NCBI GenBank assembly: GCA_963924565.1
Contig: OZ004608.1
Coordinates: 7,750,001-7,814,000, forward strand
Source: Ascidiella aspersa
Lineage: Eukaryota
Direction of reading: 5' to 3'
DNA length: 64,000 nt
A program made the position numbers and the translations under genes. The notes beneath the pieces were generated by a model that was given only the letters and a program-made list of their open reading frames with translations, did not search any database and was not told the origin of the DNA. Within the stretch, counting starts at the first letter, position 1; each line of letters begins with the position of its first letter. Of this stretch, positions 5,863 to 39,200 are shown piece by piece.

Positions 5863-6373
5863 TATCTTAAAAAATGGAAAAAATATTTTTATAATACTAG
5901 GATTGAGTAGGTTTGCTTGTAAACACATTTTTAATCAAACCTAACACAATTTTATTGTGGTAGCATGTTTTCTCTGGCCCGTCTGCGTTTCATGACCGGT
6001 ACACACGCAATAGTTTTTCTAAAAAAATTTGTGTGCACATCTAATTTGGTATATATTGCACACTTAAATTTTGACAAAATTAGGCTAAATTGTGGTAGAT
6101 TTTTAACCTAATGTATTGAGAAAAACATAATTGCAAACCTGCACACACAAGATCTTGGCGTCATGGCGTGAATCGCCATGAAATGTAAACTGGCTCTGGG
6201 GTGCAGCCCGAAATTTACATGTGTGACACTCAAAGATATCTTATGCCTATGATAAGGCATGTCATATACAAGCATTTAATGGCACTTTACACTGAGATCT
6301 TGGATGTGCAACTAAATTTTTGGGTGTGCAATTTTGTTTTTTACTCACCTTAGGTTGGCACAGGAAAACATTG

Positions 6374-6579: not shown

Positions 6580-6851
6580 AAACATTGCGCTAAACAAATT
6601 TATAACTTTGAACATCCTAAATACCGTTGTCGCTAAAAAAAAGTAATTGAAAAAATGTTTTGTATGTCAGGGTTGGAATTTAATTAAATTTTACATTAGC
6701 AACTCACAAGTTGTGCAAGTGTTTATCAATATGCACTCGCTCAGACGAATTTAATCGTTACCAATTTATAATACAATAATTTGGCCTTCAGTCTTTACAT
6801 GATGTTGTCGCAGATAGAAACATCAAGTAGTCCAGTAGGTAAAGCACTGAT

Positions 6852-8987: not shown

Positions 8988-11900
8988 TTAAAGCAATTTA
9001 AATTGAACTATCCTAAGATTGTTTTCAAATATTTCAACTTGGCACCGACGCTCGTTTTCATCACTGAAATCTAAAGCTTTCTGAACACTTTCGATCGCTT
9101 GTTTGTAATAAGTTGCCGCAAGTTTATATTTCGACATATTGTCGTATGTTGTCCCGATGTTGTTTAAACAGTGACAGTAAACTTTGTACTTGGCTGCGTC
9201 GGCACCAAAACGATTTTCCATCAAGGCGATCGCTTCTTGCAATGTAACTTCCCTTTGCTTAGACTCTTTGATGTAATCTTGACTCACACCAATCGCATTT
9301 AAGCACAACGCTTCGTACACACACCTCGCATTCCCATCGACGTTCCTCACCTTTTGCACCTCCCGACGTACGTCACGCATTAATGGGATCACGTGGTCTG
9401 CGACTGTTTGTTTTGCGCTGACGTCAGATGAAGCAAGTTCTTTATTAACTACTTCCATTCCATCAACACATCTCTTAATTCCCTCCAAGGCGTGTTCAGT
9501 GTTGACTTTGTTTGTGTAAAGCGATGCCGCGACGCGGTAGAAGGTGGCAGATTGTAAATAGTGCTTCTTCGTGCGCAGCTTAAACGCCGACGCTTCCAGC
9601 TCGTCGGCGGATAAATATTCCATCTCGCGGATAAACTTCACCAACTTCTCGACTTGGTCAAGTGCTTTGCCGAATTGCAGCATCTTGAAATGCTGCAAAC
9701 ACGCCTTCAGTAGTTTGGCTGATTTAGCGCCTTTAAAGTCAAATAAATGAGTCATTATTTATAATTCAATTATTACCTTAATTAAACGACTTTTCGAAAT
9801 TCGTTTTGATATGCGTTTAGTCACAGCGGTATTTTAACCAACGACAAACCATTCCTAATGGATATAACGTCGTTATTATTTGGACTGAAATTAAACTTGA
9901 AACACTTCTTGAAGCTTTAGGTTACAAATTTGGAAAATAAGGCTTTTCAATTAAATATCAGTTATACAATTTTTAGATTTTGTACACCCATCATCTTGTG
10001 TGCATCTATGTAATGTTAGGCTACTTACTGTGTTGTTTAAATGTCGCTCGAAGCTCTTCTCCACTCATAGCTGTCTCAATTAATTCGCTATCTAAATAAA
10101 ACAGGAAAATTGACATATGAACGTATCAGCAGATGGACAGAATTCAACCACCTAACTGATATTATATTTATTTATTAATAATAGCTTAAAAAATCCCAAA
10201 ACATATCTTATAGACTTATAGAGTAATTGTGTTTGAACAGTTTTTTTCTTCGACAAGCCAAACTTTTAAATTGATTATAAAATGGAACTTTTCTATCCTG
10301 TTGTAAATATTTTATTGATATGAAAAATAATTAATTATTGTAAATTGGACAAAACAATTAAATCAGGGCAAGGAGAATATTTTTGGTATTGAAAATTACT
10401 TAGGGCAGGACAGCAGCGTTTGGAGTCTAATCTGGCTCAGGACCTGGCAAATTCTTTTTTGCTTTTTAAAACTTTACTCGTTTTAATTAATGCACTTCAC
10501 CTCACTTTATTTGTTCTGTTGCCTTTCTACTTTTTCCACTGATGACCACTAATTGTTTTCAGCCTTTGTTTTAATCAGGGCTGGGGAGCCGGAGCCGGAG
10601 CTGGAGCCCGGAGCCCGGAGCTAAGCATTTTCTCTGGAGCCAGAGCCGGAGCCGGAGCCATTGTTATTATTTTTGTGGAGCTGGAGCCGGAGCCGGAGCC
10701 ATTTTTATTATTTTTGTGGAGCTGGAGCCGGAGCCGGAGCCATTTTTATTATTTTTGTGGAGCTGGAGCCATTTTTCAATTTGTGGTGCTAAAGCTAAGA
10801 AATTATATTTTGTTCCATCTCCAACGTTAATTAGCCAAAAGCAATTTTTAAAACTTGCCATTGAATAAGTGAGAGTCATTGGGTGTGTGTTTGATGGCTC
10901 CGGAGCTGGAGCCGGAGCCAAAGGATTGAGTTTTACGACTCCGGAGCTGGAGCCGGAGCCATTTAATAATTGCCTGATGGCTCCGGAGCTGGAGCCGGAG
11001 CTAATGCTATTTTACGGTGGCTCCCCAGCCCTGGTTTTAATGGTGAACGACAATTCCTTGCTGAAACTAAAAAACCCGGCAGTCTGGGTTTGAGCGTGGT
11101 GTGGAACAGTGTAGCTGTTTTTGTGAGCAAGCGAGCCGAAGTACGCGCTAGCCGTTCTGCTACAGATTAAGCTTAGTGGTGGCGTTCGCGCCACACAGCC
11201 ATTCTGATAATATTAAATACTAATGTTTAAATTGGGTGTGGCAGCCGGTCAGTGACAGGCCGTCAGTGAATAAGATAAGCACTTGTTCGTAAGCAATTAG
11301 GCTGCAGTCGTAAATCGTAAAAGGAAATGTAAATCGTAAAGGCTGAAGCAAGTATGGTGTGGAACGATTTTCACCTATAATTCAAGGATATATAACACCA
11401 TTATGAGTGGATTGCTGTGTCCGCCATCTTTTAAATGATTGGATTGGTGTAATATCGGGTTTTGCGGTCGGAGTCGGACGCTAAACTCGAGATTCGATTT
11501 TATTTTTTCCAAGCTTGGTCGATCTTAATTTGTTTTAAACTCACTCTGCCGTACTAACTGGGGATAATTCTGAATGAATGTTAATAGAATACAACGGCTT
11601 AGTTTATCGACACTAGACAAGTTAAACAAGCCTTATAATTGTAAAAATCGTGCAAGCATCAGAAATAACCTGCACCACGTTGTGCTTGTTGGTCAGACTG
11701 CTGCGATGTACCAGGTGTGCTGTGCAGTTCGTCGTAAGTGGTTTGGTTAGAAGCCTCAAATTCTAGCCACATAAAGTTCAAGTTATTCGAACATTTTTAC
11801 ATGGAATGATTAATTATTGTCAGTCTGTGTACACGTATTAGGCCTGAGTTCCTATGTTGTTTGATTCCGTATTTAAAAAAAAATAATTATTTAGAATACC

Positions 11901-14805
11901 TTAATATTAGCTGACTAATGCGATAAATTATTTTTTAAATGAAACGATAAATAAATCGTTTTTTACACCAATATCTCACAACATTTATTTGTTTGTTTTT
12001 CTGTGGCGGATCACTTTTATTAAAACTTTGCTCACTTAAACCATGGTTTAAGCATCAGTTATATTATTAAAAGTAGGCCATATCTAATTACCTCCAGATC
12101 TTTCAGAAAGCGAGTGCACAAACGACTTGCCTCCTTGTATTAATAATGTACTAAGGGGGCGGAACTGGCCATCGCTGAATGACGTCTCCCCAATCTTCAT
12201 CTGCTTGACCGCGTCCGCAACCTGATATAGGATGACGTCAGATTTTATTTTGGAAAGTCTGGCTTCTAATTGATTTCTGACGTCAATCATAGTGGGGCGA
12301 TCTTTAGGGTTTTGTTTCCAGCACTTGGTCATAACATCCACAAGAAGATCGACAACTTCTCTGTCTTGCTGGTTGAGAGCGGACTTGAGTTTGTTGACGT
12401 CATCCCATAGAGGCCGTTCTCCTTTTTTTACCGCCTCAACCAATGCACCGTGACCAAGTGTGTATGGGTTCTTTCGGGTCAGCGCCATGTGAACCACAAG
12501 AGCGTAACTGTAGACGTCCATCTCTTTTGTTGGTGGCAATTGTAGACTATCAAGGCGCTCAGGAGCGGTATACGCTGGTGTGTATTGAACTTCTGTGGTT
12601 GTATCGGCTGATGAAATTGTTAGAGATGTGGTGTAGCTGCGAAATTCAGCGGCGCCGAAGTCAGCTATCTTGCACTGGAGGTTTCTGTCGAAGAGAATGT
12701 TTTCCGGTTTGATGTCTCCATGGACCAGACGCTTTTCACTGCTGAAGTTGTGGATGAAGGCCAGTCCTCTCGCAACATCAGTTAGCATTCGCAAGCGCAA
12801 TGGGATGGGAATATTAGCATCTTCGTCCATGAAGACATCTGTCAGGTTTCCATTTGGCATCAGCTCCGCCACGATTGCCATTGCGTTCTGCCATTTGGTC
12901 CACCCGTGCACACGGATGATGTTCTGGTGGTTTGCCCTTTGTATCGCTTCCATTTCTTTCTTTAATCTACAAATACAGGGAAACACGTATGGAATTTTTT
13001 TTTTAATTTTGCAATGACTTATGTCTCAGTAAAGTCATTTGAAAAAAAACTTAAGTCCAAGTCAAGCCACAGTCCCAGTCAAATCCCAAACAAGTCACTA
13101 TGAGAGCAAGTCAATTTCAAGTGAACTGTTAAACTATTAAAGCTGGTAAACTCGTCCATTTATGAACAACAACTCAACTAAAAAATAACACCAACGCAAA
13201 ATACTACAATCAAATTCTTTAACGTGCAAAACTAGAGATAATTTTACTGAAAAACGCTCAATGTAATCCCAAGATATTGGACAAAAAAGACTTTATTTTT
13301 CCTAAAGACTTAGATCAAGTCAAGTAATTTTGGTCAAAATAATTAAGTCAAGTCAACTTATTTATCAACAGTGACTTAAGTGCACTTAAGTCATTATAAC
13401 ACTGGGTGTTACTATCGCATCCCCATGTCAATTAAAACGTGTTCTTAAAGTTGTAAGGGTCATTTTCGCAACATTTTCTAACGTGTGAAGCTTGACAGTC
13501 GCTTAAGCTGGAGTTATGAGGTCAAGATGGAAAATATATTAGGTTTTATCACCTCAGTCTACCACCAGGTGTACGCATATTTTACACAAACTACAGATAT
13601 TGGCATTTAAAGTAAGTGGTATAATTGATTCAACGCACCCCCCAATTCGCGTAATGATCAGAACAAAAATATTTTACTTTGTTCTGTGCTTGCAAAATGC
13701 TGTATCATCTTGATTGTGCTTTATTTCTCGCACGATATTTTTTGTTTAGTGACAATGTCATTTTAACAAAGACAGGATTTAGGCCGCATTTGTTTTGAAC
13801 ACGCGTAATAGGAAATAAAATGTTTTAAGTATGAAAGAAATTGACTCATGAAAACTAATTGTCAGCGTGTTTGCAGTACAAGATACAACTTTTGCAAAAT
13901 TAGAGTTCCCTGATTACTTAAACTCGTGACGAGCAGGTGACTTGAGTATGGGTCTTACTTTTTTTCCAGTAGATCCTTTTGTTTTCGGCTGCCAGTGACT
14001 GGAAAGCACTTGAGAGCCACCAAGCCAATCGAGTGATGTCTTGCGAGTCGAATTACTCCGAATGAACCCGATCCCAACTCGCCCTCTTCGCCTTCAAGGA
14101 TTTCAACCTCTTCGCAGGGAATTAAGCAGAACTGTTTCGGAAGTGAAAATAGATTATGATTTGACTCTCATAGTGACTGTGTATTGTCAAAAGAGTAGTA
14201 TGTAGTGTCGAAATAGTTTAGATAAAATCGTAAAGATAATTAACGACCCATAAGCCAATATATAAGCGGTTTCTTCACTGGGATAAATTTTGATGGTCGA
14301 GAGGAGTAGGATGGTTAATTCTAAAGGATTTTTGTTGTGAATAAAACCATGTGACGTCACACGACAAGGTTTTTAAAAGGGATTTATCTCTGTTTACAAT
14401 TGGTATTGCCTTCTGGCTTCGGTTCAATAAAAAAAACCTAAAAAATGATTGCGATGAGTACCGATAACTAAATCCACATAAAAGCAATTCATAAATATCG
14501 AAGTTTCGTAATTTAGAGAATTATAAGGTGAGAAAGTAGGGTGCTTAGATTTGCGTCAAGGATTTGAAATAGCTCTATACAACGCCCGAAAATAACGATT
14601 TTCTAACCACGTGGGGTCATAAAAGAGGAGAAAAAAAAAACTCTTGACACGTTAGACGATATTCCTGGTAAACATTTCTTTACCTTAAAGGCGAAATGTA
14701 ATTCTGAAATTATGGAAAATTGTATTTTTTTGCTAAAAATCGATTTCCTTGTATATATTATAATAAAGGCATTGTTACTGTACTTACTAGGGAGTTGTCC
14801 GCCAT
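8988..14805 (-). CDS. RIPK/IRAK-like non-RD Ser/Thr kinase with C-terminal TPR-like domain, paralog A, 6 exons, ~654 aa
   Basis: Exons 14805-14788 (MADNSL, least certain), 14131-13959, 12966-12092, 11762-11670, 10091-10029, 9730-8988; GT-AG, one continuous frame. Kinase motifs GSGSFG, VALK, HGDIKPEN, DFG, APE, DVYSY, CW...P.DRP. TPR-like CLNNIGTTYDNMSKYKLAATYYKQAI. Exon sizes 173/875/93/63/743 match paralog B exactly. Confidence 0.85.
10576..11033. mobile_element. hAT-type MITE rich in GGAGCC/GGAGCT subterminal repeats
   Basis: TIR CAGGGCTGGGGAGCC / GGCTCCCCAGCCCTG; exact TSD GTTTTAAT at 10568-10575 and 11034-11041. Confidence 0.9.
13008..13404. mobile_element. Degenerate MITE with AAGTC subrepeats
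   Basis: Repeated CAAGTC motifs; right end AAGTCATTATAACACTG pairs imperfectly with left CAATGACTT; no clear TSD. Confidence 0.45.
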
Positions 14806-16524: not shown

Positions 16525-19500
16525 ATGTCTTTGTCGATGGCTACAGCTGAACAAGTAAGTGTAGTGTGCATAACATTTTCCATGTGAAGTTAAGTTTAAA
16601 TAACCATAACTAAAAGTACAACTATATGATAAATTTAGTGTAATAAATAAATCAGATCGGTTCAATATTTTTGTTTTTATAGTGTTGAACAGCCTCGTGT
16701 TTTCTAACAGCAAATCTCAATAGAAAAGCCTTGATCACCCTTATATCTATAAATAAGTACCAAGCAACTATTTAGGAATAACACTTCTGATAATTCATAT
16801 GACAATAAATTATTTTGCAAAGCTGATTTAGGAATTTGCTATTTGAAATCAGACTCTTAGTGGGTCGCAAATCTTTGGAAAACAATAAACATCACCATTC
16901 ACCAGGTCAAAGTAAACTCTTAAAGGATAATTTAACAACATAAAAGACTTGATATATAAGGACTGTAAATCTAATTAAACCTAAACATTATTTTTATCGA
17001 ATGCTATATTCTCTATTGATCCAATATTTTTATTTTCCTATAGTTTCGTTCCATTCCTTGCAACGAGATTGAAATCCTCAATGGCGAAGAGGGCGAGTTG
17101 GGATCAGGTTCATTCGGAGTAGTTCGACTCGCAAGGCATCACTCGATTGGCTTGGTGGCTCTCAAGTGTTTTCCAGTCACTGGCAGCCGAAGGCAAAAGG
17201 TTCTGCTGGAAAAGAAGTAAGTGTCTAAGAGTAAGGAACCCCAGGCCCAAAAGTTTAAGTTGTTACTAAACGAAAAAAAAAACCACTATGTAACGTCATA
17301 GTTTTCTGTATAATATTAAATTCTAGGCTACTTCTCTCCGCAATTAAAACTTTATGTAAGAAAAACTTAACAACACTTTTTGGGGGTTTGGGGCACATGG
17401 CCATGCCCCCACACCCTTCTACCACAAAAAGAAAAACCATACTTTGTGCCTATGTTAACTAAGTAAGTACAAAAAATAATTATGTTTCTACCAAGTCTTA
17501 TTCCACTATATTAAAATCGTTTTAGCTTGGCTTAGTGCATCCCATCGCACCGTAAAAAAAAAGTTTGGGCAATTTAGAAGTTATTGTAGCGACTTTTTAG
17601 TTATGTTGAGAAACTTATGGTAGTATCCTATATTCGTTTAATAAGTAACAAAACCTAAAGTCGCTAAGTGAGTTCTATCCGGGTAAATATAAATTCTATT
17701 CTGTCCTTAGGAATAATTAAACACAACAAATGTATCTCTTTAGTATATATTGGGTTAAGTGTAAAAGATGAGCGTTAATAACTATCACAAACAAGAGTTT
17801 AGCATTACTATCGGCATTACACAAATCTACTTACAATATTATTGTCAAATCATAGCATGTTACTGCAATAACCACGAATCAAAACTGGCATATTAGAACC
17901 GAATCGTTCTCAAATATATAGCACAAAATGCAATACAATTTAGCAAAGTCATCACGCTAACAATTCTATTTTTGGCCAAGTTGGTAATTTAGAAACACAA
18001 AAAAAGTCCATCAGTCGTTCAAAGACCTGCAGACTAGGCAGCAGGAATTTGCTAAGATAAACAGTACACAGGACTGGGCGCCCACTTATCTCGCCCGAGT
18101 GGCCATCGCTTCGGGCAGCGAATGTCGCTCGCACGCACAGGCTACATTAACATTGTATGCTCTAAATAACCGAAATAAAGTCGTGGTAATGTACACCTGA
18201 AAAAGATAGAAAGGAACAGAAAATAACTACATTAATTTCGAAATGCAAAAACACTTTAGAATTATCGCCGTCTTAAAACCTATTTAACAATTCGTAATAA
18301 CTCCTAATGATAGTGGAACTTTGAGATTATAGCTTGTGACAATTAACAAATTTAGGTGTTTACTGTGTTGATAAACACGTAACACTTATAAGGCCTCTTT
18401 TGTGAATTAATTACATCGTTGAAGCTTTTGTATTGAAGACAACACTTGTCCAATCTACAACTAACAAAATAAAGGAACTGTGTGCTGTTTATAAGGTTAG
18501 GCTACATCATTTTGTCACGTTCAGATATAACTTAATGCCGACACATTTTGACACAACGTTGTGACGTCACGGTATGTGGTAACTTTGTGACGTTACTTTA
18601 TGACGAAACTTTGTGACAACATCTCTGAAAAAATTGTCCGCGCCTGATCACAGTGTATTTTTAATCGCACGAATTACGATAAAAACTTTGTATTCAGGAG
18701 ACATATAACGCATTAGGCACACAAAAATTATTGCACATTGCTTTGAGCCTGCAGCTAAAAGGCTGTTTAGAAATCACGCAAAATTTTCACGCGATGTTCA
18801 CAACAGTATACGTTTCCTTTATGTTGTTGCAATAGGCGTTAGACATAACACAATTTATTGCAAAAACAGTATAGAATTGTGCAAACCGGTAAAACATGAA
18901 TACCCCCGCGTATGTTACTTTGAAAAGGTGTAAGAAAAATACTTGTAAAAAGTTGGAAAATGTTTATCTTAGTTGAATTATAATTAAAGTATAGAGCTTT
19001 TATAGCTTCGCAAATATGCTAAGTTATAAAATACAGAAAAATGCCAGAGGTGCACGACAAATTTTAGCTCAATAGATGAGTTCCAAATCAGCAAAAAGTA
19101 AACGAAAGTTTTGCGCGACGATTTTTAAATTTTGACAAAACCTGTTTGGAGATGATTGGCATGGCGTGGTCTCACACCCGTGTACACAACGTAGGTCTCA
19201 ACAAACCGTACCATACTGTAGCCTACTAAATACATCCCATAGGACAATGTTCGACAACCCTTAGTCGCTGTCCAAAGTCGAACCCAGAGTGGTTTCAGCA
19301 CGCCAAAATAAAATTTGAATTTTGTTGTTAAAACGTGTAGTTTTAATAGGTTTGTTTTACCAACTGTTGAACAGGAGCGGGTTTAAAACGATTTTACCTC
19401 TAAAAATCGGTCTAATTAAATGTAAGAAGAGATGGTTTTAAAAGCGTTCAAAAACCAAAACGTGTTTGCTAGTTTACAATGTGAGTTTACAGGGTGTCAC

Positions 19501-22500
19501 CAATGTAAACAATGAAAGGATGAAATAACAATACTTTAAGAAACGCGAAAATTTTAATCGTTTTTCCAGATTCCAGTAATCAGTTAGTGTGTGGTGGTTG
19601 TTCACTTTTACACCGGTGGCCACCAAACTATGTTCCGCTGGATGATTGACACATCTTAATTCCGACTTCATATAAAACCCTTAAACAGAGTTTCGTAAAC
19701 CATGATGGCAGTTTGATTTGCTTGGGTCGGCGACTAAAGAAGTTCGCATGGTTAGATTTATTAACATTGGTTTTAAACAAGATTTCTACAATATTTGAAA
19801 AAATGCCGAAGCGAGACGAAGACTTAAATATGGAGCTGTTAAACTCTTAAGGTTAAGATCAAGTTTAAATGAAGTCCTATAAAGACGCATTGAGATATAT
19901 TAGGTTCAACAGCAGTTAAACTGCCTATTCCGCATATACAAATAATTCGATCGCCATTTTTCAAAGTGTCATTATCGTAAAACATCAAACTCCAGGTGGC
20001 AAAGTAAAGCACAAAAATAGTATAATGTTACATTTGTGGCACAAAATGGAGCCTTTTTCGTATCATTTGATCTACTGCAGTGGTCGGCAAACTGTGGGCC
20101 GCATAGCCATTTTTAGTGGGCCGCGAGTTACTTTAGAAAAGCTGAGTGTCATCAAGTAGTTGTGGGCCGCGAGATAGCCGAACGTTCATTGCACTGAATT
20201 TTAAAAGTTCTTCTTTCTAATAAATTTAATTGCCTAAGCGCGGTGCTGACCCGCGTGCCAAATGTGTCCATGAGAGTGCCTATAGCCCACTTCAACTATG
20301 TAAACGCAAATTGTTTTGCGCTTCGCGTGTTTTTTTTTCGTTTAATAGTATCTTTGCAATACATTATGACATGGCAGCGTCGGTATCAAGGCGCCGTGTA
20401 ATATTTCACCTTTTCTTGGTGTCAAGTTCTGTCAACAGCCTAACATGGGTGAGCTTGTACTCCCTGCGTAATGCAATTTCTACCAAAATATATCATGTAA
20501 TTTACACAAACATCGTGTAAACGTGTTTCGTGCGAAACTTTTTACGTGGCTGCGAGTGCCGCCAATTAGCTGTGGAGATTATATAGTGTTAAATTGTTTA
20601 TGCGTCGTGTGGCTCATAACTTTACAGTCGAATTTCTGGTAAATTAAACTATAAATGCCGTACCATCGAGCAATATTCGAATCCTTTTATGTGCAATATG
20701 CGTCACGTATCTTTTCATTTTTGCCAAAAACCAATAAACCCTATTTATTTATTTTTTTTATACGCGAATGTTGATTTTACATTCATATATGCGCACGAGT
20801 TCGTTCGAGAACAACAAAAGTGTTTCTCAGAACAATTGTTATATAACGTAACTTTGTGGCGTCATGCTAGTTTCTCCAACTCAAAACAAATATACTGGTT
20901 CCACTGCTGTTTTTGTAGTAGTTTTACCTAGTGGGCCTTCAATAGCTCTGAAAAGATTACTTTGGGCCGTGACAAAAAAAAGTTTGCCTACCACTGGCCT
21001 ACTGCATTAAATATTCTAGTGTTACTTTAAATGATCTTAGTGTGCTTTCTGTCGTACCACGATGAAAGAACTTAATAAACGTTTCAAACTTGCCAACATA
21101 ATCCTAGAAAACGCGGACAAATGTCGTTTAAAATTATTTTAATTACGATTTGGACGTGTTATTAGTGTCTACATAAGGACCTATTCTGAACATATTTCCT
21201 ATACGCGTTTGCCCGTATTTGCAGGTTAAAGAAAGAAATGGAAGCGATACAAAAGGCAAACCACCAGAACATCATTCGTGTGCACGGGTGGACCAAATGG
21301 CAGAACGCAATGGCAATTGTGGCAGAGTTGATGCCAAATGGAAACCTTAGAGATGTCTTCATGGACGAAGATGCTAATCTTCCCATCCCATTGCGCTTGC
21401 GAATGCTAACGGATGTTGCGAGAGGACTGGCCTTCATCCACAACTTCAGCAGTGAAAAGCGTCTGGTCCATGGCGACATCAAACCGGAAAACATACTCTT
21501 TGACAGAAACCTCCAGTGCAAGATAGCTGACTTCGGCGCCGCTGAATTTCGCAGCTACACGACAACTCTAACAGTTTCATCTGCCGCTGCAAGCACAGAA
21601 GCTCAATACACACCAGCGTATACCGCTCCTGAGCGCCTTGTTAGTCTACAGACGCCGCTTACTAAAGAGATGGACGTCTACAGTTACGCTCTCGTGGTTC
21701 ACATGGCGCTGACCCAAAAGAACCCATACACACTTGGTCACAGTGCATTGTTTACGGCGGTGAAAAAAGGAGAACGTCCTCTATTGGATGACGTCAACAA
21801 ACTCAAGTCCACTCTCAACCAGCAAGACAGAGAAATTGTCGATCTTCTGGTAGATGTTATGAAAAAGTGCTGGAAACAAAACCCCAAAGATCGCCCCACT
21901 ATGATTGACGTCCGAAATAAACTGGAAGCCAGACTTTCTAAAATAAAACCTGACGTAATTTTGCATCAGGTCGCTGACGCGGTCAAGCAGATAGACATTG
22001 GTGATACGTCATTCAGCGATGGCGAGTTCTCGCCTCTTAATACGTTAACTCTACAAGCAGGCCTAGTTGTCACACACTCGCCTTCTGAAAGACCTGGAGG
22101 TAACTCAATATGACTTAATTCTGGTTTAGGTGAGCAAAGTTTGAATAAAAGTGGTGCGCTACAGAAAGGCAAACAAAACAAATGATCTGAGATAAGGGTG
22201 TAAAAAATGTTTTATTAGTCGTTTAAATTAATTAAATTACATTATTGCACTTTAGGTTCACACGTCAAGTTGTTTTTTAACCAAACCTACCATTTAGCTA
22301 TACTTAATAATTATTTATTAAAAATGAATTCCTGGCTAATGGAATTGTGTGTAAAATCTAACAAACTTTGGAACTCAGGCCTAAAACGTGTACACAGACA
22401 GATAATATAATTTTTTTTTTGTTTTATGTTTCTAGAAGTTGAGGCTTCTAACCAAATCACCTACGACGAACTGCACAGTACGCCTGGTACATCGCAGCAG

Positions 22501-25500
22501 TCTGACCAACAAGCACAACGTGGTGCAGGTTATTTCTGTTGTTGGCACGATGTTTACAATTATAAGGCTTAATTCAACTGTCTGGTGTTGTCAAACTATA
22601 AAGCATTTGTATTCTGTAAACATTCAATCATAATTATCCCCAGTTAGGACTGCAGAGAGGGTTTAATTTAAATCAAGTTCGACTCATAAAGTTCGAAATA
22701 AAATCGAATCTAGAGTTCATCACCCGACTACAACTCAAACTGCGAAACCCGATATACCACCAATCCACACAATTAAAACAGGGCGGACACAGCAATCCAC
22801 TCATAGTGGTGTTAAACAGGGTGGGCCGGAAAAACCTACCACATTTCAAATTGTCACTGTACCAAAGCTTTAGCAGTACGACAGGAGGTTGAATTGAAAT
22901 ATTGCAGCAAATAACTTACGATTTGTGAAGTAAATAATGTATTGTGCAAATTTTTACAATTTTGTATCTGTATGTAAAATGGCCTGGACTGGCGAACACC
23001 GTGCATTTATTGTGGAAGATTTCGTTAGAAATGGTGAATCTGAGACTCGAGGGCGCCATCTACAGGATGTAAAACATAAATAGATCAAATAGTAACCTTT
23101 TGACTTTCGAGATGAGACAATACATGTTTTAATTGCTTAAAAATTTTGTCTCTTTTTCCCACTTTCAAATGTGATAAGTTTTTCTGCCGCACCCTTCACC
23201 AGTCCGCGCCATTTTACATACAGATACAAATGCACAATACATTATTTACTTATAAAAACTAAAACCTGAAACACAAATGGTAAGTCGTTTTTTTTCTTTT
23301 TTTTTTCTTTTTTATGGTAAGTCCTTTGCTGCAATATTTCAATTAGACCTCTTGTCAAACTGCTACAGCTTTGGTACAGTAACAATGTGAAATGTGGTAG
23401 GTTTTTCTGGCCCACTCTGTATAGCATTGTAGGTAAAAACGTTCCACCCCATTCTATTCCGCGTTTACGATTTACATTACCCTTTACGATTTACATTCCC
23501 CTTTACGATTTTAGGACGTTCTTAATGGTTACAAACTTGCTACAGCGCAAAGCACGACGGAATTCAGCCAAATAAAACGACTTTGTCAGGTCCTGAGCCG
23601 GATCAGAATCCCAAATCTGCAGTCCTGTCCGAAGTATTTTTTTAAAACAAAAATATTATCCTTGCCCTGATTAAATTGTTTTGACTAATTTATAATAACT
23701 AATTATTTTTTATATCAATAGAATATTTACAACAGGATAGAAAAGTTCAATTTTATAATCAATTTAAAAGTTTGGCTTGTCGAAGAAAAAAAACTGTTCA
23801 AACACAATTACTCTATAAGTCTATAAGATATGTTTTGGGATTTTTTAAGCTATTCCTATTAATAAATCAAATATCAGTAGTCACTTGGTTTAAGAAAATA
23901 ACATATTGCATTTTTATCAACACGTCGTTTTCGTTTTTAACGTAACCTACAATTTAGCTATGCTAAATAATTATTTACCTAAAATTGGATTCCTGGCTAA
24001 TGGAATTCTGTGTCAAATTTAACAAACTTTGGAACTCAGGCCTTAAACGTGTACACAGACAGACAATAATTAATCATTCCATGCAAATTGTTCGAATTAC
24101 TTTAATTTTATGTTGTTTTATGTTGCTAGAAGTTGCAGCTTCTAACCCAACAACTTACGACAAACTGCACAGTACGCCTGGTACATCGCAGCAGTCTGAG
24201 CAACAAGTACAACCTGGTGCAGGTTATTTCTGTTGTTTACACGATGTTTACAATTATAAGGCGTGTTTCACTTGCCGAACGTCATTCTACTCCGATTTCT
24301 AAAGTTCCCCTAAGCAACAATTTATTTCTGATTTCAATACACACATCCTGATTTTGGGAATATCTTTACAACAAAGTAGGAATACTTCTTTTTGTTACTA
24401 GCTTTGAAAGTTTGACAGTGGCACGTCGCGGAAAAAAAAAGTTTCTCGAAACTCTCCAAACACAATTATCTAAACTTATCTTTATCGTCTTTTAAGTTAC
24501 TTTGGTCATTGAATTCTGGCCACCTGCTGTTAGGTTCGCATGCCAATTTTCCGGTTTTATTTATAGATAGCGATTTCATTGAGACAGCCATTAGTGGAGA
24601 AGAGCTTCGAGCGACGTTTAAACAACACAGTGAGTAGCCTAACATTACATAGATGTACACAAGATGATGGGTGTACAAAATACTAAAAAAATAGATAACG
24701 GATATTTAATTGAAAAGCCTTATTTTTCAATTTTGTAGCCTAAAGCTTCAAGAAGTGTTAACTATTCAATATCAGTTTAAATAATAACGGTGTTATATCC
24801 ATTAAGAATCAATTTCTTTTCGGTTATAATGCCGCTGTTAACAAACAACCAAAGATTTTATGAATACATTTAAATAACATAATTAATTTAAAAATTAATG
24901 TAAAGACTCTGTATTTATTATTTTAAAGGTAGTGACTTAGAAAAACTACTGAAGGCGTGTTTGCAACATTTCAAGATGCTGCGATTCGGCAAAGCACGTG
25001 ACCAAGTCGAGAGGTTGCTGAAGTTGATCCGCGAGCGCAAATATTCATCCGCCGTCGAGCTGGAAGTGTTGGCGTTTAAGCTGCGCAAGAAGAAGCACTA
25101 CTTACAATCTGCCGCCTTCTACCGCGTCGCGGCATCGCTCCACACAAACAAAGTCAACACTGAACACGCCTTGGAAGGAATTAAGAGATGTGTTGAAGGA
25201 ATGACAATCGTAAATAAAGAACTTGCTGCGTGTGACGTCAGCGCAAAACAAGCCATTACCAAACACGTGATCCCACTAATGCGTGACGTAAGGCATGAGG
25301 TGCAAAAGGTGAGAAACGTCGATGGGGATGCGAGCTGTGTGTACGAAGCTTGGTGCCTGCATTTGATTGGCATGAGTCAATATTACATCAAGGAGTGGAA
25401 GCATTGGGAAGTTACATTGCAAGAAACGATCGCCTTGATGGAAAATCGTTTAGGTACTGACTCCGCCAAGTACAAAGTTTACTGTTACTTTTTGCACAAC

Positions 25501-25671
25501 ATCGGGATAGCTTACGAAAATATGTCGAAGTATGAACTTGCGGCAACTTATTACAAGAAAGCAATCGAAAGGTATAAAAAATGTTCGGAATACACGGATG
25601 AGGATGAAAGACAGCAGTATATAGAGTTTAGTGAAAGCGTCCTTAGGGGCGTTCAAAACAAGTTACTCTGA
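16525..25671 (+). CDS. RIPK/IRAK-like non-RD Ser/Thr kinase with C-terminal TPR-like domain, paralog B, 6-7 exons, ~658-689 aa
   Basis: Exons 16525-16554 (MSLSMATAEQ, least certain), 17044-17216, 21225-22099, 22436-22528, 24130-24222 (duplicate of the previous exon), 24567-24629, 24929-25671; GT-AG, frame continuous; same motifs as paralog A. Confidence 0.85.
20078..20996. mobile_element. Non-autonomous hAT (Charlie-like) element in intron 2 of paralog B
   Basis: TIR CAGTGGTCGGCAAACT / AGTTTGCCTACCACTG; imperfect TSD ATCTACTG / GCCTACTG; subterminal GGGCCGC motifs. Confidence 0.8.
22817..23419. mobile_element. Internally deleted Tc1/mariner-type element plus an inverted second left end
   Basis: TIR CAGGGTGGGCCGGAAAAACCTACCACATTTC at 22817; inverted copies end at 23195 and 23419 (followed by TA). 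Relic transposase ends MAWTGEHRAFIVEDFVRNGES and GRHLQDVK. The homologous intron of paralog A (~11395) is an empty TA site. Confidence 0.75.
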
Positions 25672-30200: not shown

Positions 30201-33200
30201 GTACAAAACGCCCCTTGTGCATTCTGAAACTTTGTGCGCGTCTCGGCATTCTTACAAAAGTTTACTTCTTCAACCTCTCGAAAAAAACGTGACCTAATTC
30301 TTTAAGGCCAAGGTGAAATCATGAGTATGACCTTACCCCGATCGCCAACTGGACAATTAAAGCATTCTAACTGAAACGACTGTACGGTATCATCTAAAAA
30401 CTTTATAGCCTTTGGAATCAAGTAATTAGGTTGCCTGTTTCCCGAACGCCAAATCGATTTATAACCCAGCAAACCAGCATCATGGTTAACGTGGGCTCAG
30501 TATGTTCTCCTTTTATTTCCTGAAACAGTCCTCATATAATTTCCTAAAGAAAATCCGCCAAGCAATTGTATTTTCTCATTTCATATCGTAAAAGAAGTCC
30601 GCCAAACATTCCGAATGTCCTCCATTTTTATAAAACAAAGACGCGTGTAACTTGGCCATCGCCCTAATAACCCGCCCTCTTTTCGTATTTTACCAGGATT
30701 GCGCGCCACACATCGCCTCTATTACTTCCGTGACGACGCGTCGACTTTTCAAGAAGCCACAGCCTCGTGTTGCCAAGCCGGCGGAAAGCTGGCCATCTTC
30801 AGGAACGACGCCGAGTTTAATCGGATCCAGTGCGTAGCCACCCCCCGGCAAGGCGGACTACAGATGCACAGAGTGCAGTCCTCTTATATCGGTATGAGGT
30901 AGACTTATGCGCGTTTTGCTTTCGGTTCAACAAAAAAAAAATAAAAAAAACATAGTTTGATAAAACCAATGCCTTGTCGCGTTTTCCTTAAAGGTATTTA
31001 GACTTATTTAAGTTTCATCTTTGTTGGTCCTACAATAGCAGGTCTCATTAGCTAATTGTTTTATGACGTCACAATGTCATGCTGGCCCTGGTGCACGCGA
31101 ACAAAAGTGTTTTTTAGGGTCCGTGTTAAAAAAATAGTTAAATAACCCCAGCACTAAACAATCTTTGAACATTTGTTATAAATACGACTTTCTATGTTTT
31201 TCTTGGGCCTGAATCAACTTGGCCAGACGATTGAGAACGTTTTTGCGTTGCTTTTTCTTAACAGCAAACACTCTGGTTGATCGTAACAACCACGACAGCA
31301 CAGCAGACCATCAGCACAGCAAAATGTGCTTCGCGGTAACCACAGCGAGAAAGTGGCAAAACGTGGAATGCAACGTACCTCGGACATTTGTCTGCTACAT
31401 AGACGGTAAGCAGAAACTATGGTTTGAGCTTAATGTCATACAAACTTAATAACATAAATAACATTGCAGATGTTGAATTAAACATTGAAAATAGACAGCT
31501 GTGTCGATTCGGTGGAGAACAAAAGTTAAACTGCTATGTGTTGTGTGTATTAAATCTGCAGGCAAAACAGGTTAGTTTTTAATTTCAGCACTCTGGTCTT
31601 CTTTCAGTTTCTTCAGCGGGTTTCAACGAAACAACGAATTGCATCAGTAAAGCAGTCGTAGCTAAGACAACAGGAACAACAAGCACAATAACAACCAACA
31701 CGGCGACTCAAGAAACAACGACATTATCAACTACGGCAGCGGTAACCCCAAGTACAATAATAGCAAAAACAACAACAATAGCTACCACTATAGGTAAACA
31801 ACCAACGAAACCAACATCACAATTCACAGCAACAGAGAAAACAACAATAACAGCAGAGTCATCGCAAACCGCAACGGATTCATCCCCAGCTGCAACAGAA
31901 ACAGCATCCATATTGAAAAATACAGTTACAGCAGTCACCTCTGTAACAACAGAAACAGCAGCAGCAGCAGTAATCAGTTCCCAAAAAGATGGTCGGAAAA
32001 CGAAAGGATCACAGACAAGGACATATTCGAAGACAGCATCCACAGAGGAAACATTCAGTACATCTACATCTCCTACAAAGACAAACCTTGAATTAGGAGC
32101 GACAACTCTACCTTCGTCTAGCACCAAATCGCATTGGTCGACAACGGGTGCTACACAGGATGCTCTAGCTTTAACCGATAACCAGTTTCCAGTTGCGCTC
32201 GGCTTGACGCAATCGCTAGCGCCAAACACAACTGCAAAACCGCAGCCTACGAGCAAATCAGTTGCGACACGAATACACACAGAGGAAACATCGCAGACAG
32301 CGCATGCTTCTGCAACCGCTCATCGTACTACGACAGCAGCAATTAAAACAGCAGGGATGTCCACACATCAAGCGACCAGCACTGTACTCAAGTTTACCGG
32401 CGAAACAAAATCTTATAAGGGCCAAAAGATGGGAAGACTAATTCAAATGACTAGTTCAACTAGTACAGAAATATCGTCAACAACAACAACAAGTCCAACA
32501 ACTGCCAGTACCATTAACACACGTCGATTAGAAACACGTGTCAAACCGCAATGGACAATAGCAACACCAACAATCAAACATACAACTGCAAAACCTCCAG
32601 AAAACATAGCAACACCATCAACACGAACAAAAATTGTCAGAAAAGCAACAGCAAAAACAATTACATCAGCAACAACACAAAGAAATATTGAAAGAGCAAC
32701 AACATCAATAACAGCAACAAAAATGGCAAAAGGAACAACGCCAGAAAAAATTGAATTAGTAACACGTCCTGAAATGACCACAGCAATAAAACCAACCAAC
32801 ATGAAAACAGAAACAACATCAAGAAAACCAACGACAGCACAAATAACAGAATTGCCAAAACCTTTGCCATTAGTCGAAACACCAACGCCTGAAACAAAAA
32901 CCACAATTCAGCAGCCTCAACTAACAAAATCATTCAGAGAATTGTACCAGACCTTACCAACAACAAAAACTTCCACCAACACAAAATCAAAGATGGTGTC
33001 CGAAGTGCCAGCAACTGAAGTCGAAACGACAACGGAAAAACTTGTTGTTGTCCACTTTCGATTCCCGGCAAATGAAGGGAATGTCGACGTGGAGCCGGTT
33101 ATCCAAGAAACCGAACGGGCCGAGACTCGAGCGGAATTTCGGTTTCTATCGCCCGGCCATTCCGACGAGGTTTACGATTTTGAGGAGCCGCTGCCTTCCA

Positions 33201-36200
33201 ATCAATTTACAACACAACTTCCGACCAACATAACCGAAAGTAAGCACATGTGCATATGCAAAACTTAAGCTAATATCGAGGTTTTAGTGCTCGTGGTAGG
33301 TGGCTACTGATTAATTTAATGATTAAACTCTTGGTAAGACGTAATTAGAATATCAAAGCTCATACAGAAGTCATGTTGATAAAATGAATAAAGAGTTATT
33401 CGAAACGTTCAAAATAATACCTACTTCTGTATGGGCTTTGATATTCGTATTACGTCTTACTACAACCTCCAACCATGCTCCAAAACTCTTGGTAAATTTC
33501 AGACTTCTTAGTGACTTAGTTCCTACACAGCGATTTCATAGTAATTGTTGGTTGGATAAAAAGTTACATGTTTTACAAAGTCCGAAGTAAATTCCACTGT
33601 TGATAGGTATGTGGTAGACTTTAATGTAAAACTAAAGCTACTTATTGCAGCGTATATCCGGATGGTTTAATTATATGTAGAACAGACATCCAATCATCTA
33701 TGAGCTTTAATATTATTTCAATTTTAAACTAATTGGAATTTCTTGAAGCCAAAGTTTCTTAAGACGTTTAGTTTATATTGTTTAAAAAACGTACCTTTCA
33801 ATGTAGCAATCAGTATGTTGATTCGAAAACATTGGCTGAAACGAATTAATGTATACGATATCGGATCGGCACCGAAACCATTTTGGTGTCACACAAATAC
33901 CGATACTACCACTTAGCATCGGATAATGGCTCCGATCCGATATTATCGCACATTCCTTCTGCGAACTCATCCCTACTATATACTACGAAATATTAACGTT
34001 TGATAGTAGGTGCGAAAATACCCGTTAAGCTTTAACACAACTGTTTTTGTTTTAGATTTATCGAGTATCACATACAACTCCACCACGACGCCCGACAATA
34101 GTAATAGTATTAATAGCAGCAGCATTGCCAAAGGCAACCACAATAACATTACCAGCAGCTACAGCAACATTACCAGCAGCAACATTACCAATACCAACAG
34201 TAGCATTACCAACAACAAGAGGAACAACAACAACAGGAGCAGAAGCAATGATAGGGATGACACGCCTTCCACTCCGCTAATCTGGACAGCGAGCGCTAAC
34301 GACAGCTCCCCAGCTCTCAAGGAGATTTGCGACACGTCCCTGAGTCTCTGCGCGGCGCCAAAGCTTACAAAACTCTCGCTAATCACGATACAAGATCAGC
34401 AGGCGAGCGAAGATAAAGGAAGCGACCAATCCAAAGAGGATCTCCTCAAAAGGCCGTTGGTACGTTCTGGCGGCTCAGTTGTGCTTGGAGTTCAAGCTCC
34501 GGCAAACGAGACTGTCTACGTTGCTTTTACCAACGTTACACGACAACAGGCCAGCGTCTTTGCCAACGAGCCGCCGCCGCCTGTTGATAACCAAGTCCAA
34601 GTGGAAGCGCCTATCCCGGAGCTGATCACAGTCTCAACTGGATCCTCGGTGCCAGTTAACTACACGATCCGGGTGGAAAGAAACTCTGTCGACTTAGGAT
34701 CGCTCCTGGCAGGTAAAGGAAGGCGCGAGTGGGCTCCGGCCAATGTGAAAGTCACAGAGGCGAAAATGGTGTGCGTCTATTTGGACAAGAAGACAAAGAA
34801 GTAAGTAAACGGATGCCCTCTTGCTTTTAACGTTTTATTTGGCGTTTTAACGTATAATTTAGCGTGCAGCATGTTGGTTAATCAGCTTCCAAAACCCCCC
34901 TGCACTAGTACCAAGTGTTTTTATCTCATACATACTCTATTCTTTCAGAGATTTGCGGTTTTAAAGAATCTTTAGAAATGCAATAGTTAAAAGTGTAGAA
35001 CCGTTGCCAACCAGTGTGGTAACAAGTTTTGTTAAGTTATTTTGTTGTATTTGCGTGAAAAGGAAAACAAATTCTACTTAAAACTGTAGATAGTTTGATG
35101 TTTTTGCAACTCTAGGATTGTTTTTCATTTATTAAATAATGTAATTTAATCCATTATGAAATGTTTGCAATTAAAATATCTCCAGTTATCATTAAGGTGA
35201 AACATCAACGTTGGGATCAACAAACTATTTGCCAAAAACACATATGCAACGAAAAAGTTCAGGCGACACAAACCTTTTTCTTTCAAGATCACGTTTTTTG
35301 CAACAAGGTTTTATAGATGTATGGTGAACCAGCCATTATGTCATGAAACCACTGCACAAATTGTTGTTAACGTTATAAACAACCCGATCGCAGATTTTCG
35401 AGAGACGGCCTAAAAGCGATCAACCCCACGTCGAAGAACTACTACTGTGTCTCCAACCACACCACGATATTTGCCGCCATGCTGACCTTGAAGACGGTCC
35501 ACATTTCTGAGGGTGTTAAGGTATACGGCTGCTTGTCATTGGGTAATCATGCAAGGGACAGATGTTTTTCTTTGGACCATGTCCAGTCTGGAACATCTAG
35601 ACACATACTAGTAAAACTAAATTTTTGAATAATACATATGGGTGTAAAAATGTTTAGAGAATTGTCCAGTGATTTTTAGTACTTCGAGCCCTCAATAGGG
35701 TATTATTCATATAAGGGGGTCTCAATATAATTCATTCCAAGCACTGGAGTTCAGGATAAGAGGACAGTACACTCGTGTAGTTACACCGCAGTGCTACAAG
35801 AGTTTTGCAAATCAGCATTAGGGACGAATTCAAATTTAAATTCATCCCTAATTTACTCAAGGCGGAAAAATACGCAAAACAAATTAAAGGACTGTTAATA
35901 TTTTAGTTAATCAGAACAGAGGCTTCGACGGAACTTGTGGTACATGTACTTTAAACACCAAAACTTCAACCGTTTTAATAGATCACCTAAAAATACATAA
36001 TTAATGGTGATCAAACTTCCAAGTTTTAATATGTTTCTTCCAAACTGTATTTAATATATTTAATGAGTCATATATTTGATGGTATACTACCTAGAGTTTA
36101 TTGTTGTTTTAGTCGGCCATTCGTCACGCATTTCAAGTTTAATCGATTTTAAAATAATGCTACGCGAGTATCGGATGAGTACAGGTACTAATACTTGCTT

Positions 36201-39200
36201 TTGAAGTCGCAGGCCAGTATAGGACACGTGTTTTATGTTTTTGGCGTGTTTGATACCCCTGCTTTATTAGCTATTGACTTTGATCTGATATTAGAAGACA
36301 TCTAGGGTATTTTACGCTTTTCAGATCGCCAGCTACACCACCGAGGTCATTTCGGTGATTTCACTCGTATTCGCCGTTTTCGTGCTGACCAAGTTCCGCC
36401 GACGCCTGCAGTCCGACCGAACCGTTGTGCAGATAAACCTCTGCCTGGCCCTGCTCTTCTTCCACTTGATGGCGCTGTTGAGCGACCTGGCCCTGAACTT
36501 TGAGCGAACTTGTGAGATTGACGCGGTCTTCATCCAGTTCTTTCTTCTAAGCACAGGTTAGTTGTCTTTTAAAATGCTGGAAACAGTGTGGGTGTCAAAC
36601 ATTTAATTATCGCATCCCATTAATACCGAATTTTTTGAGCAATGCGGTCGGCCGCGGGGACCGCCGTTCCGATAGAATACCCATCGGGCTACTTGGAAAA
36701 ATAAAACTTTGTGTGAATTTAGCAGCCCCCGTTTTTGCAGCGCTGGGTGGTTTCTTGAGCCCAATTTTGCCTGCTTTGTATTGCGTGGGATAGCGTCGGC
36801 ATTCGTCTGGTGGACACCAAGCGGATGAGGGGCATTTTTAGCATAGTTTGTAATCTCGTGGTTAGATACAAGCTGTAGCACAATGCGAGGACTTAACTGT
36901 AGTACTGTCCGAAAAACGTCTTGCTCGAGAATGTGTAGTCATTCCTTATTCTAGCAGCTACTTCGAGGACCTTCTCCAGAACGAGTCTGCAGCAGCGCGT
37001 TAAAGTGATAGGCGTCAAATTTGAACAAAGTTATTTTTGGGAGTCGTTGTGTAGAAATACATTGTGTGTTCATTCGTGTTGTGGTGAAAATCGTACATCG
37101 CTTTGATCGCCTCTCAAAATGCATTTTGTATTACCTGTAGAAAATTAACAATTAAACTTCAAAACTAAACTTGCACCAGATTTTTTTTTATTAAAAACGA
37201 AACGCTTTTACCAGGCTTTAAACAATTTGACAAGAACAACCTAAGATAAAACTTTCAAATTTAAAACGCATAGGTTTTTTCTTGAAAATAGCGTGGCTTT
37301 TGACTTTAAAACAAGTTTCGAAAGTTGTTTCAACCGAAATTTCCTGAACTAAAAACAATCTTCGTGAACCGTTCACAATACTGTGCAAAATCGCCTTAAT
37401 CCTGTAACGAGCCCAAGAATCTCGCACACAAACCACGATAAACTCGATCATAACCTCGCCACCAACTCTATCATAATTTTCGAAATGACAGCGTTGAGGA
37501 TGCTTCTGGAAGGCGTCACGCTCTCGCGCAAGACCTTCGGCGACGCGTTGAAATCTTTTTCGCTAAATCTCAAATTTTGACCGGGTGCTGCTTTAGAACT
37601 TCTCCTGAAATATTCTTAGAAAATAGCCAATAAGCTTCACTGGCAAAGTTGTTCCTCTTAAATTTTCCACAAGTTGGGCAAAATAATTTTTCGCTGACAT
37701 CATCACCGATGACTTCAACGTTGAAATAAATTTTTATAAAAACAACTTTTAAACAAAATTTGCAGAAGTCTTAACTTTATGTTCGCTCTTCCTCAAAACG
37801 ACAGCGTTCTGGATGCTCCTGGAAGGCGTCACGCTCTCGCGCAAGACCTTCGGCGACGCGTTCCAGCTGGAAAAGTCGCGCGCCGAGACCTTGACCAAGC
37901 TGGCCGTGGGCTGGGGGATTCCCCTGGCCGTTGTGATCGGCTCGGTCGCTTTCGGCTTTGCTTACGACACGTACATGGCGCTCAATCCTGAGTTCGTGGT
38001 GATTCTGTACGGCCTGAGGTACTCAGAGTGTTGGATTGACAAGCGCTCGGCCTTGCTGCTTTGGGGCGTCGTGATACCGGTGGCTGCCACCCTGCTCGTG
38101 AACCTCGTGATCGTGATCAAGGTGAGTTCATGTGATGTGAAGATGTGTGGTGCTTTTTTTATCCGATACCGATAGTCGTTACTTTAAGCAGAATTAAGCA
38201 GACAGGCCGATCCAGTACTGATTAATGTAGATATAATGGTAAAACATGCAAAAGTAAATTCGATGAAACTAGCAACAGTAATTTTTTTCAGGTTTTAAGA
38301 CAAATTTCTGTTCGCGTTTGGAACCCCTTCTGTTGTAATAATTCATTATTTTCGGATATATTTCTTTTAAAGATATTGTAAATAAACCTAAATCTTTCAA
38401 ACATGTTGGAAATATTACTTTCAAACATTAAACATAAACATACATTGGAAACATTGCTGAGTAGTTATTGAAACAGATACGATAAGACATCGGAAATAAA
38501 AGCTGGAATAGATTTGAAACAAACATTAACACTTTGGTATTGAGGAAGAGTCCACAGGGACTTTGCTCGATAAAATCAGCTTTATTTAAAAGGGATTTAA
38601 AGTAAGGCTTTGCGAAACAAAAGGCCGTTTGGAAATATGACCAAAAGCTCACCTCAACTATAGCGTTATGGAACATTACTCGAACACAATATCGAAATCG
38701 CTCTGAAAAATGCTTCACTTTTGATAGAGACAGCAATTGCCCGCATGGCACTATTGGTCGGTCCACTCATGGGAAAGTGTTATTTATCGGTAATGTTCGG
38801 TTTAAAACAGTGGTTCTCAACTGGGGTGCCATTTCTAATGCTTAAGGGTTTAGAGAGATATTTAATAATCTTCAAGAATATGATTTTTGCTCCACTCTTA
38901 CCATTTTTGTGTAAGATTAGAGTTCAATAAATCCAATTGTAAATTCCTATACGATGTGTAGAATTAATGTACGTTGTTCCAGTTCCATTTATTGTGACAT
39001 TTCAGCAAATACTCAACGAAAAGTTCAGTCAGGGTACCGAAAATCTACTTATTATTTTTGAGGGGTGCCGTAAGCCATAAAAGGTTGAGAATCACTGTTT
39101 TAAAAACCATACAGCTTAGAACTTCCGTCAAAGGTTGGATGAGAAGTTGTCTTAAATGGCAATAAGCAAACAACAAACAACAGGGTATACTGCACAAGAC

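Follow-up and report, generated by a model that had tools for sequence, protein, structure and literature searches.

Why should one domain of a protein change about three times as fast as another between two neighbouring genes? The question is raised by a 64,000-nucleotide stretch of the genome of the sea squirt Ascidiella aspersa (contig OZ004608.1, positions 7,750,001 to 7,814,000 of the forward strand; hereafter the window). Two head-to-head inverted paralogs lie in it, gene A (minus strand, ∼9.0–14.8 kb) and gene B (plus strand, ∼16.5–25.7 kb), each joining an N-terminal kinase through a Ser/Thr/Gln-rich linker to a single 743-nt terminal exon that encodes a domain like the tetratricopeptide repeat (TPR). 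An earlier note, made from the letters alone, had proposed diversifying selection on a ligand-binding groove in that domain. The proposal was supported, chiefly by the gene family to which the two belong and less by the pair itself. We consider it probable, although well short of certain, that A and B are members of an expanded family of RIPK-like kinase–TPR proteins in sea squirts, with a positively selected groove, and that they likely act as cytosolic immune sensors.

The models of A and B are colinear, five exons each, with AG/GT borders and matching phases; they total 1947 nt, form an open frame of 648 codons and, as the earlier note had it, align without indels. We infer that the exons are spliced into one ∼650-aa protein. 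No hydrophobic membrane segment was seen in either model (hydropathy over 19 residues peaks at 0.9). Features are listed in window coordinates.

16525–16554, plus strand: gene B, candidate first coding exon (ATG, phase-0 donor; read by eye, without RNA support)
17044–17216, plus strand: gene B, exon that starts the kinase N-lobe (Gly loop GSGSFG, VALK lysine)
21225–22099, plus strand: gene B, main kinase exon (RIPK-like non-RD, HGD; DFG and APE intact, then a helical tail; Pfam Pkinase 1.3e-36)
22436–22528, plus strand: gene B, 93-nt linker exon (Ser/Thr/Gln-rich)
24130–24222, plus strand: gene B, duplicate 93-nt linker exon (in frame, AG/GT retained; A lacks this copy)
24567–24629, plus strand: gene B, 63-nt linker exon
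24929–25671, plus strand: gene B, TPR-like exon, the feature under study (11 predicted helices, five hairpins and a capping helix)
25351–25386, plus strand: gene B, helix 7 groove stretch, residues 141–152 (A and B differ at TPR positions 2, 5, 6, 9 and 12)
25486–25521, plus strand: gene B, helix 9 groove stretch, residues 186–197 (A and B differ at TPR positions 2, 5, 9 and 12)
25558–25671, plus strand: gene B, last 37 codons (far older divergence from A, silent and replacement)
14788–14805, minus strand: gene A, candidate first coding exon (read by eye; no evident likeness to that of B)
13959–14131, minus strand: gene A, kinase N-lobe exon
12092–12966, minus strand: gene A, main kinase exon
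11670–11762, minus strand: gene A, 93-nt linker exon
10029–10091, minus strand: gene A, 63-nt linker exon
8988–9730, minus strand: gene A, TPR-like exon, the paralog compared

An internal duplication in gene B (22228–22576 and 23890–24270) carries the 93-nt linker exon plus both of its splice sites, possibly giving a longer or alternative linker; the second copy was excluded from A/B comparisons. The idea that A and B are two alleles of one gene, or an assembly artefact, was rejected: contigs of run X2 contain both kinase versions, the first showing 6 differences over 887 nt, the other 43 over 417 nt.

Counting bore out the contrast. The TPR exons differ at 69 of 246 residues (72.0% identity), or 65 without the first four codons, where the earlier note had counted ∼65; the kinase cores differ at 21 of 237 (91.1% identity), its ∼21. 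The amino-acid distance ratio is 3.2, close to the threefold claimed. Replacement divergence per site (dN) was 0.17–0.18 in the TPR exon vs 0.044–0.046 in the kinase, and silent divergence (dS) 0.27–0.32 vs 0.15–0.17. In a joint fit, dS was ∼1.5 in the last 37 codons (residues 210–246) vs 0.20 in residues 1–209 (likelihood ratio test statistic, LRT, 16.8). The clustering of changes toward the C-terminus that had been described is therefore real, with 20 of the 69 differences in those 37 codons, but it partly reflects older ancestry rather than selection. Domain by domain, dS was equal for the kinase (0.16) and TPR residues 1–209 (LRT 0.65) and differed only with the last 37 codons kept (LRT 5.7). 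Alignable A/B introns diverged by 0.17–0.26, with no clear difference from kinase dS. These figures indicate that the kinase and most of the TPR exon are of the same age, so that gene conversion of the kinase exon, tried as the cause of the contrast, was not supported.

Conversion is half of one alternative, in which constraint was relaxed after duplication while the kinase exon was converted, and positive selection had no part. The pair's own ratios lean that way: omega (dN/dS) was 0.54–0.67, below 1, for the whole TPR domain and ∼0.5–0.6 outside the groove, values that by themselves would fit weaker constraint, and divergence along the duplicate is a mosaic, as the much older last 37 codons attest. 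Relaxed constraint explains part of the pair's threefold contrast, not the groove pattern. Given the equal dS and the family results that follow, by which it was rejected for the family, we hold it very improbable.

Genome searches with two TPR exon queries gave 74 and 75 matches, ∼30 of them on C3 at 32–38 Mb, and the kinase exon gave 45 (E ≤ 1e-20). A same-strand TPR exon was found by script within 12 kb downstream of 29 of the 30 kinase matches so tested; the other 15, by table inspection, lie far from any listed TPR match. Two further kinase–TPR loci, L054 and L055, were present in fetched DNA. The genome contains at least 31 kinase–TPR genes.

Selection was measured with GY94 site models on IQ-TREE trees in four paralog groups: X (14 exons, with an exact duplicate and an apparently disrupted copy excluded and a truncated copy used to its stop), Y (8 exons, one stop-bearing copy excluded), Z (4) and W (5). 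All four showed omega of 6–17 at 5–17% of TPR codons. In group X, omega averaged over the exon was 1.83 (M0), and M2a placed 13% of sites at omega 10.9 (LRT 304); the LRT stayed at 299 with branch lengths refitted and, with 13 genes, at 296 for M8a/M8 and 280 under other codon frequencies. Group Y gave omega 16.8 (LRT 180), group Z LRT 51 and group W LRT 30. Groups X and Y are related (∼68% identical) and may exchange sequence, hence they are not fully independent. Up to eight different residues occupy a selected site among the 14 group X genes. By contrast, omega was 0.23 and LRT 0 for kinase exons from 13 of the group X genes, with no positively selected site, showing purifying selection; the synonymous tree length of these kinase exons (2.2) was not shorter than that of the TPR exons (1.5).

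Recombination was considered as a source of the high LRTs and rejected. Twelve neutral simulations with heavy recombination, tips being reshuffled every 10–60 codons, gave LRTs of 1–15 (maximum 15.4), compared with 30–304 in the family. A tree-free count agreed, with 1.25 extra bases per first or second codon position at groove sites vs 0.27 (X) and 0.15 (Y) at fourfold sites (p = 5e-5), a 4–8 fold excess; both results also argue against relaxed constraint. Changes are extremely concentrated in few codons, as would result from local hot spots of mutation or from a mutator aimed at these codons. However, third positions of the hot codons are mostly fixed, all four bases are affected, and silent variation beside hot codons is not elevated in X or Y. 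Hot spots were rejected on the third-position fixation and the ordinary neighbouring silent variation, and we give such a mechanism scarcely any credence.

The TPR-like exon is predicted to form a five-hairpin TPR superhelix. An AlphaFold2 model of the B exon had 11 helices at a predicted local distance difference test score (pLDDT) of 96; its best Foldseek matches were the TPR domains of KLC and LGN (E 4e-5), and VIA matched it to 7t7t (Z 14.7, root-mean-square deviation 2.9, 144 residues aligned). Pfam TPR_1 detected a single repeat, at 26.0 bits in B (7e-6) and 24.6 in A, where the cut-off is 27.8. The hairpins are mutually dissimilar, and domain length is near-constant over 33 aligned exons. 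In TPR proteins, ligand contacts fall at positions 2, 5, 6, 9, 12 and 13, which line a concave peptide-binding face (PMC1261162).

The 23 selected sites of group X, in B numbering, are residues 71, 85, 89, 93, 96, 127, 141, 145, 148, 151, 156, 161, 182, 186, 193, 196, 197, 215, 218, 230, 233, 240 and 243. They lie mainly on helices 5, 7, 9 and 11 with i/i+4/i+7 spacing; odd-numbered (A-type) helices carry 17 of them and even-numbered helices 4 (p = 0.01). Residues 186, 189, 193, 196, 197 and 218 correspond to TPR positions 2, 5, 9, 12, 13 and 34, all on the concave peptide-binding face (PMC1261162), in the Pfam TPR_1 register, which sets helix 9; helix 7 was registered by taking Gly147 as position 8. 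By this numbering the selected residues are predicted to line the concave face.

Substitutions between A and B follow the same map. Placement was not random, with differences at 9 of the 12 groove positions known from the literature vs 5 of 28 other helix positions in two repeats (p = 0.001). All motifs quoted in the earlier note were found in the A and B translations, and its two last-helix motifs are exactly the groove stretches; the shift to aromatic residues that it described is weak (F, W or Y occurs at 9 sites in B alone and at 5 in A alone). Identity of A and B to group X is only ∼30%, yet 17 of the 23 group X sites differ between the two genes vs 52 of 223 others (p = 2e-6), and with the tail excluded 11 of 17 vs 38 of 192 (p = 2e-4). 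Pair omega was 2.9 at group X sites (p = 0.002; 2.1 without the tail, p = 0.07) and 2.4 at sites chosen from group Y (p = 0.013; 2.7 without the tail, p = 0.015). Site models of the pair alone gave LRT 12.9, falling to 4.4 once the tail was dropped; omega estimates were unstable, and these fits were not relied on.

What lies behind the groove is a kinase of RIPK type. Both genes encode GSGSFG, VALK, KKEME, HGDIKPEN, ADFG and APE, and so by motifs both kinases are intact and non-RD, a type linked to innate immunity (PMC8463890). For gene B the best PDB matches were RIPK1 (1.4e-27) and RIPK2 (2.1e-25), and the best 25 listed were all RIPK1 and RIPK2. Named protein matches were RIPK1 and RIPK1-like, with plant receptor kinases scoring lower; identity to fish RIPK1 is ∼32%. 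RIPK C-termini bear RHIM, death domain, CARD or ankyrin repeats. Pfam found none of these on the two large exons of A and B, only kinase and TPR, and the remainder of the models is a short low-complexity linker. A NACHT or NB-ARC NTPase was likewise absent by Pfam on both large exons, and the 648-codon models leave no room for one.

The kinases are not uniformly conserved between A and B. The ∼6 differences that had been reported in the activation segment are 6 of 13 residues there vs 15 of 224 in the rest of the kinase (Fisher p = 0.0003, for a window picked post hoc), and omega above 1 was not demonstrated at this cluster. Taking the neighbouring C-lobe loops as well, 14 of 74 residues differ vs 7 of 163 elsewhere. 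Surfaces of the activation segment and C-lobe loops are often attacked by microbial enzymes. This pattern could suit an escape process: these would be kinases of defence signalling whose host partner is conserved, with change driven by pathogen inhibitors that bind the TPR groove; an equal omega above 1 at the binding surface is also what escape predicts. Radical, many-way change across the groove, reaching eight residues per site, is hard to square with a single host ligand, and escape does not alone require more than 30 copies. We judge it unlikely, if the strongest of the alternatives.

The joint change of groove and activation segment would also be expected if the groove co-evolved with an endogenous partner, whether a host client or the protein's own kinase, much as a plant BSK TPR binds its own kinase domain; rice BSK3 TPR–kinase binding appears in a reference title in PMC5478731. 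Close paralogs speak against such sub-specialisation: in group X, 10 of the 11 pairs with 0–5 differences in 228 kinase residues differ at 5–9 of 12 groove positions, so that groove change is not tied to the kinase in the same protein. An omega of 6–17 recurring in four groups also seems far above that usual for partner co-evolution, and we regard sub-specialisation as improbable. That so many grooves change fast while the kinase stays constant points instead to external, evolving ligands and a shared output.

Those external ligands might come from the same species. Ascidians possess self-sterility and allorecognition systems, and the grooves could read polymorphic host peptides or receptor tails in self/non-self recognition, for instance between sperm and egg. 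Phallusia protein P0022 has an extracellular sushi region and a hydrophobic membrane segment ahead of the same TPR domain, and allo-incompatibility is mentioned in PMC8195603. However, A and B have no membrane segment, and the diversity sits between paralogs, so far as a handful of haplotypes tell: B alleles in other samples carried 7 replacement and 6 silent variants, with none of the 13 at the 12 groove positions and one at a group X site, whereas allorecognition loci keep many divergent alleles. Self/non-self recognition therefore seems to us a somewhat poorer candidate than escape.

The immune-sensor reading has its own difficulties. The same allele survey offers it no groove variation within B, and a McDonald–Kreitman test for B on these few haplotypes was not significant (p = 0.36). 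In the pair, whole-domain omega is below 1, as given above; omega at the 12 literature groove positions is 2.4 but borderline (p = 0.051), and four selected sites of group X (85, 96, 182 and 197) are unchanged between A and B. In group Z, silent variation beside hot sites is somewhat higher (0.21 vs 0.14). The concave face was assigned by TPR numbering, not by atomic coordinates, and since groove positions are variable in all TPR proteins (PMC1261162), location alone is not specific to immunity. A single RNA run, of which ∼6% was read, gave no reads on the B kinase exon and no splice joint; depth was 1–2, in sense orientation, at the 3′ end of the B TPR exon. Ligand, activity, induction, phenotype and immune role are all putative.

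If A and B are immune sensors, they could work as follows, every step from ligand to output being our inference. The groove of each paralog would bind a different fast-evolving foreign peptide, from a microbial or viral protein. Binding would relieve inhibition by the TPR domain and linker, or would cluster the proteins so that their kinase domains activate each other, and the conserved kinase would feed one common defence or cell-death output. Duplication would supply new grooves, with selection rewriting ∼25 residues in each. More broadly, and with confidence a little below an even balance, we picture an NLR-like repertoire that ascidians built from parts other than those of NLRs: receptor kinases by the dozen, each a single cytosolic chain, whose distinct TPR grooves read pathogen proteins, with a constant RIPK-like output and with the sensor exon swapped onto other kinases or non-kinase effectors. 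The family would be a concrete and testable candidate for intracellular pathogen recognition in invertebrate chordates, which lack adaptive immunity, among the closest living relatives of vertebrates. Specificity would be set by ∼25 residues per protein on a small 246-aa scaffold that is predicted with high confidence, and natural paralog pairs, such as those at C3:37.69 Mb and C3:37.74 Mb, supply identical kinases with different grooves.

The TPR sensor exon looks modular, with varied kinases or non-kinase N-termini in groups Y and W. Group Y exons (L051–L055, C3 34.4–35.0 Mb) are 67–71% identical to group X and lie downstream of a much more distant RIPK-like kinase that has an extra intron; no kinase was found within ∼8 kb upstream of four group Y genes. 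Sensor and kinase modules have apparently been swapped there. Group W TPR exons are preceded by a non-kinase N-terminal exon. Relatives on C1 and C4 have no kinase and carry an alpha/beta exon with a GS turn (L063:3840–4535, L064, L065, L066:3679–4407 and L070:4250–4708); in group W an Ala/Val/Gly-rich repeat of variable copy number lies upstream of the alpha/beta exon. Compared with TRADD-N, which has an RRM-like fold with a uS motif, the group W N-terminal exon showed the GS motif in 4 of 5 aligned sequences and had a beta-alpha-beta-alpha-beta order, with pLDDT 45 and a best Z of 4.8. That identity was not confirmed, there being no Pfam match and no TRADD chain among the fold matches listed. 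A word-index search for longer relatives found none of the TPR exon or of this exon.

Other loci vary the arrangement further. L069 (C2 36.40–36.41 Mb) has a family TPR exon preceded, in the same orientation, by Ig and FN3 exons, which are either fused to it or part of a neighbouring gene. At L060, two related ∼100-aa exons (2073–2366 and 6781–7092) lie upstream of a kinase-less group X TPR exon. L011 and L012 on C3 have identical TPR exons, representing a very recent duplicate or one of assembly, and L010 and L028 carry premature stops, which fits birth-and-death turnover.

A HMMER library search with the TPR domain gave 517 relatives (E ≤ 0.001). Among 168 library proteins scanned, 111 match the domain over at least 150 columns. 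The only one of the 168 to join the two modules is Phallusia P0030: it opens with the C-terminal part of the same kinase (38% over 69 aa, E 1e-11), after which comes the same TPR domain. An ESM Atlas search with P0030 returned generic TPR clusters only. Ciona P0013 has four tandem copies of the domain with differing groove residues, and the unnamed protein P0118 combines TPRs, a kinase and an RNase 2-5A domain. The named relatives looked up were all ascidian (Ciona, Phallusia and Styela), with 14 of 20 clusters named and 6 unnamed or 'hypothetical'. We found no description of the kinase–TPR family in the literature searched, most subscription journals and supplements lying outside it, and none in the available portion of PMC8195603.

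Elsewhere in the window, a B intron contains an element with 113-bp terminal inverted repeats (22810–23426). Reads there are several-fold to over tenfold deeper than on either side, which marks it as a high-copy repeat resembling a miniature inverted-repeat transposable element. An intron of gene A holds an array of short GC-rich hexamer-like repeats (10580–11020). A single-exon ribosomal protein S7 gene, probably mitochondrial, occupies 5143–5934 on the minus strand (Pfam 3e-23), and at least two adhesion G-protein-coupled receptor-like genes, with Thr-rich stalks and secretin-family seven-transmembrane exons (Pfam 7tm_2), occupy 31583–40467 and 56050–62319.

Among the closest known systems are uncharacterised ascidian proteins with the same ∼240-aa TPR-like domain at 25–35% identity (Ciona XP_026692798.1, Phallusia CAB3263277.1 and CAB3260946.1, Styela XP_039255685.1). 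CAB3263277.1 also carries the kinase C-terminus; unlike A and B, most of these relatives, all named 'uncharacterized', have other N-termini or tandem domain copies. Vertebrate RIPK1 and RIPK2 share the N-terminal position of the kinase, its sequence similarity and the non-RD catalytic loop, but where they have RHIM, death domain or CARD, none of which was detected in A or B, the sea-squirt proteins have the TPR domain. Plant BSKs show the same order, a kinase followed by a C-terminal TPR domain, and are cytoplasmic with immune roles (PMC5478731). They number only 5–12 genes and act downstream of surface receptors, and no hypervariable groove is reported in the available portion of that source. 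The BSK kinase is of the RLCK-XII family, whereas that of the sea squirt is closest to RIPK1/2, and the shared order most likely arose by independent fusion.

In its proposed manner of working the family resembles two further systems. In fungal TPR-NLRs such as Podospora Pa_2_10340, positive selection is confined to the TPR concave face (PMC4986451); these too are cytosolic and form an expanded modular family, the face in our case following from TPR numbering. The fungal proteins have near-identical repeats in varying numbers, whereas the five sea-squirt hairpins are dissimilar and fixed in number, and in place of the fungal NACHT or NB-ARC NTPase the sea-squirt output would be the kinase. In ALPK1, the concave side of a helical solenoid binds ADP-heptose and controls a kinase in the same chain (PMC10113258), which makes it our working model for a ligand-binding solenoid and kinase in a single chain. 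ALPK1 pairs an alpha-kinase with an N-terminal solenoid and recognises a single fixed ligand; the sea-squirt family has an N-terminal RIPK-like kinase, a C-terminal solenoid, at least 31 genes and a hypervariable groove. The family may thus work like a TPR-NLR sensor or ALPK1 while having the architecture of neither, with no NTPase, alpha-kinase or RIPK adaptor domain. If so, direct fusion of a TPR domain to a RIPK-like kinase is another way in which the plan of a variable repeat sensor joined to a constant signalling domain, used by the NLRs of plants, animals and fungi, has been realised.

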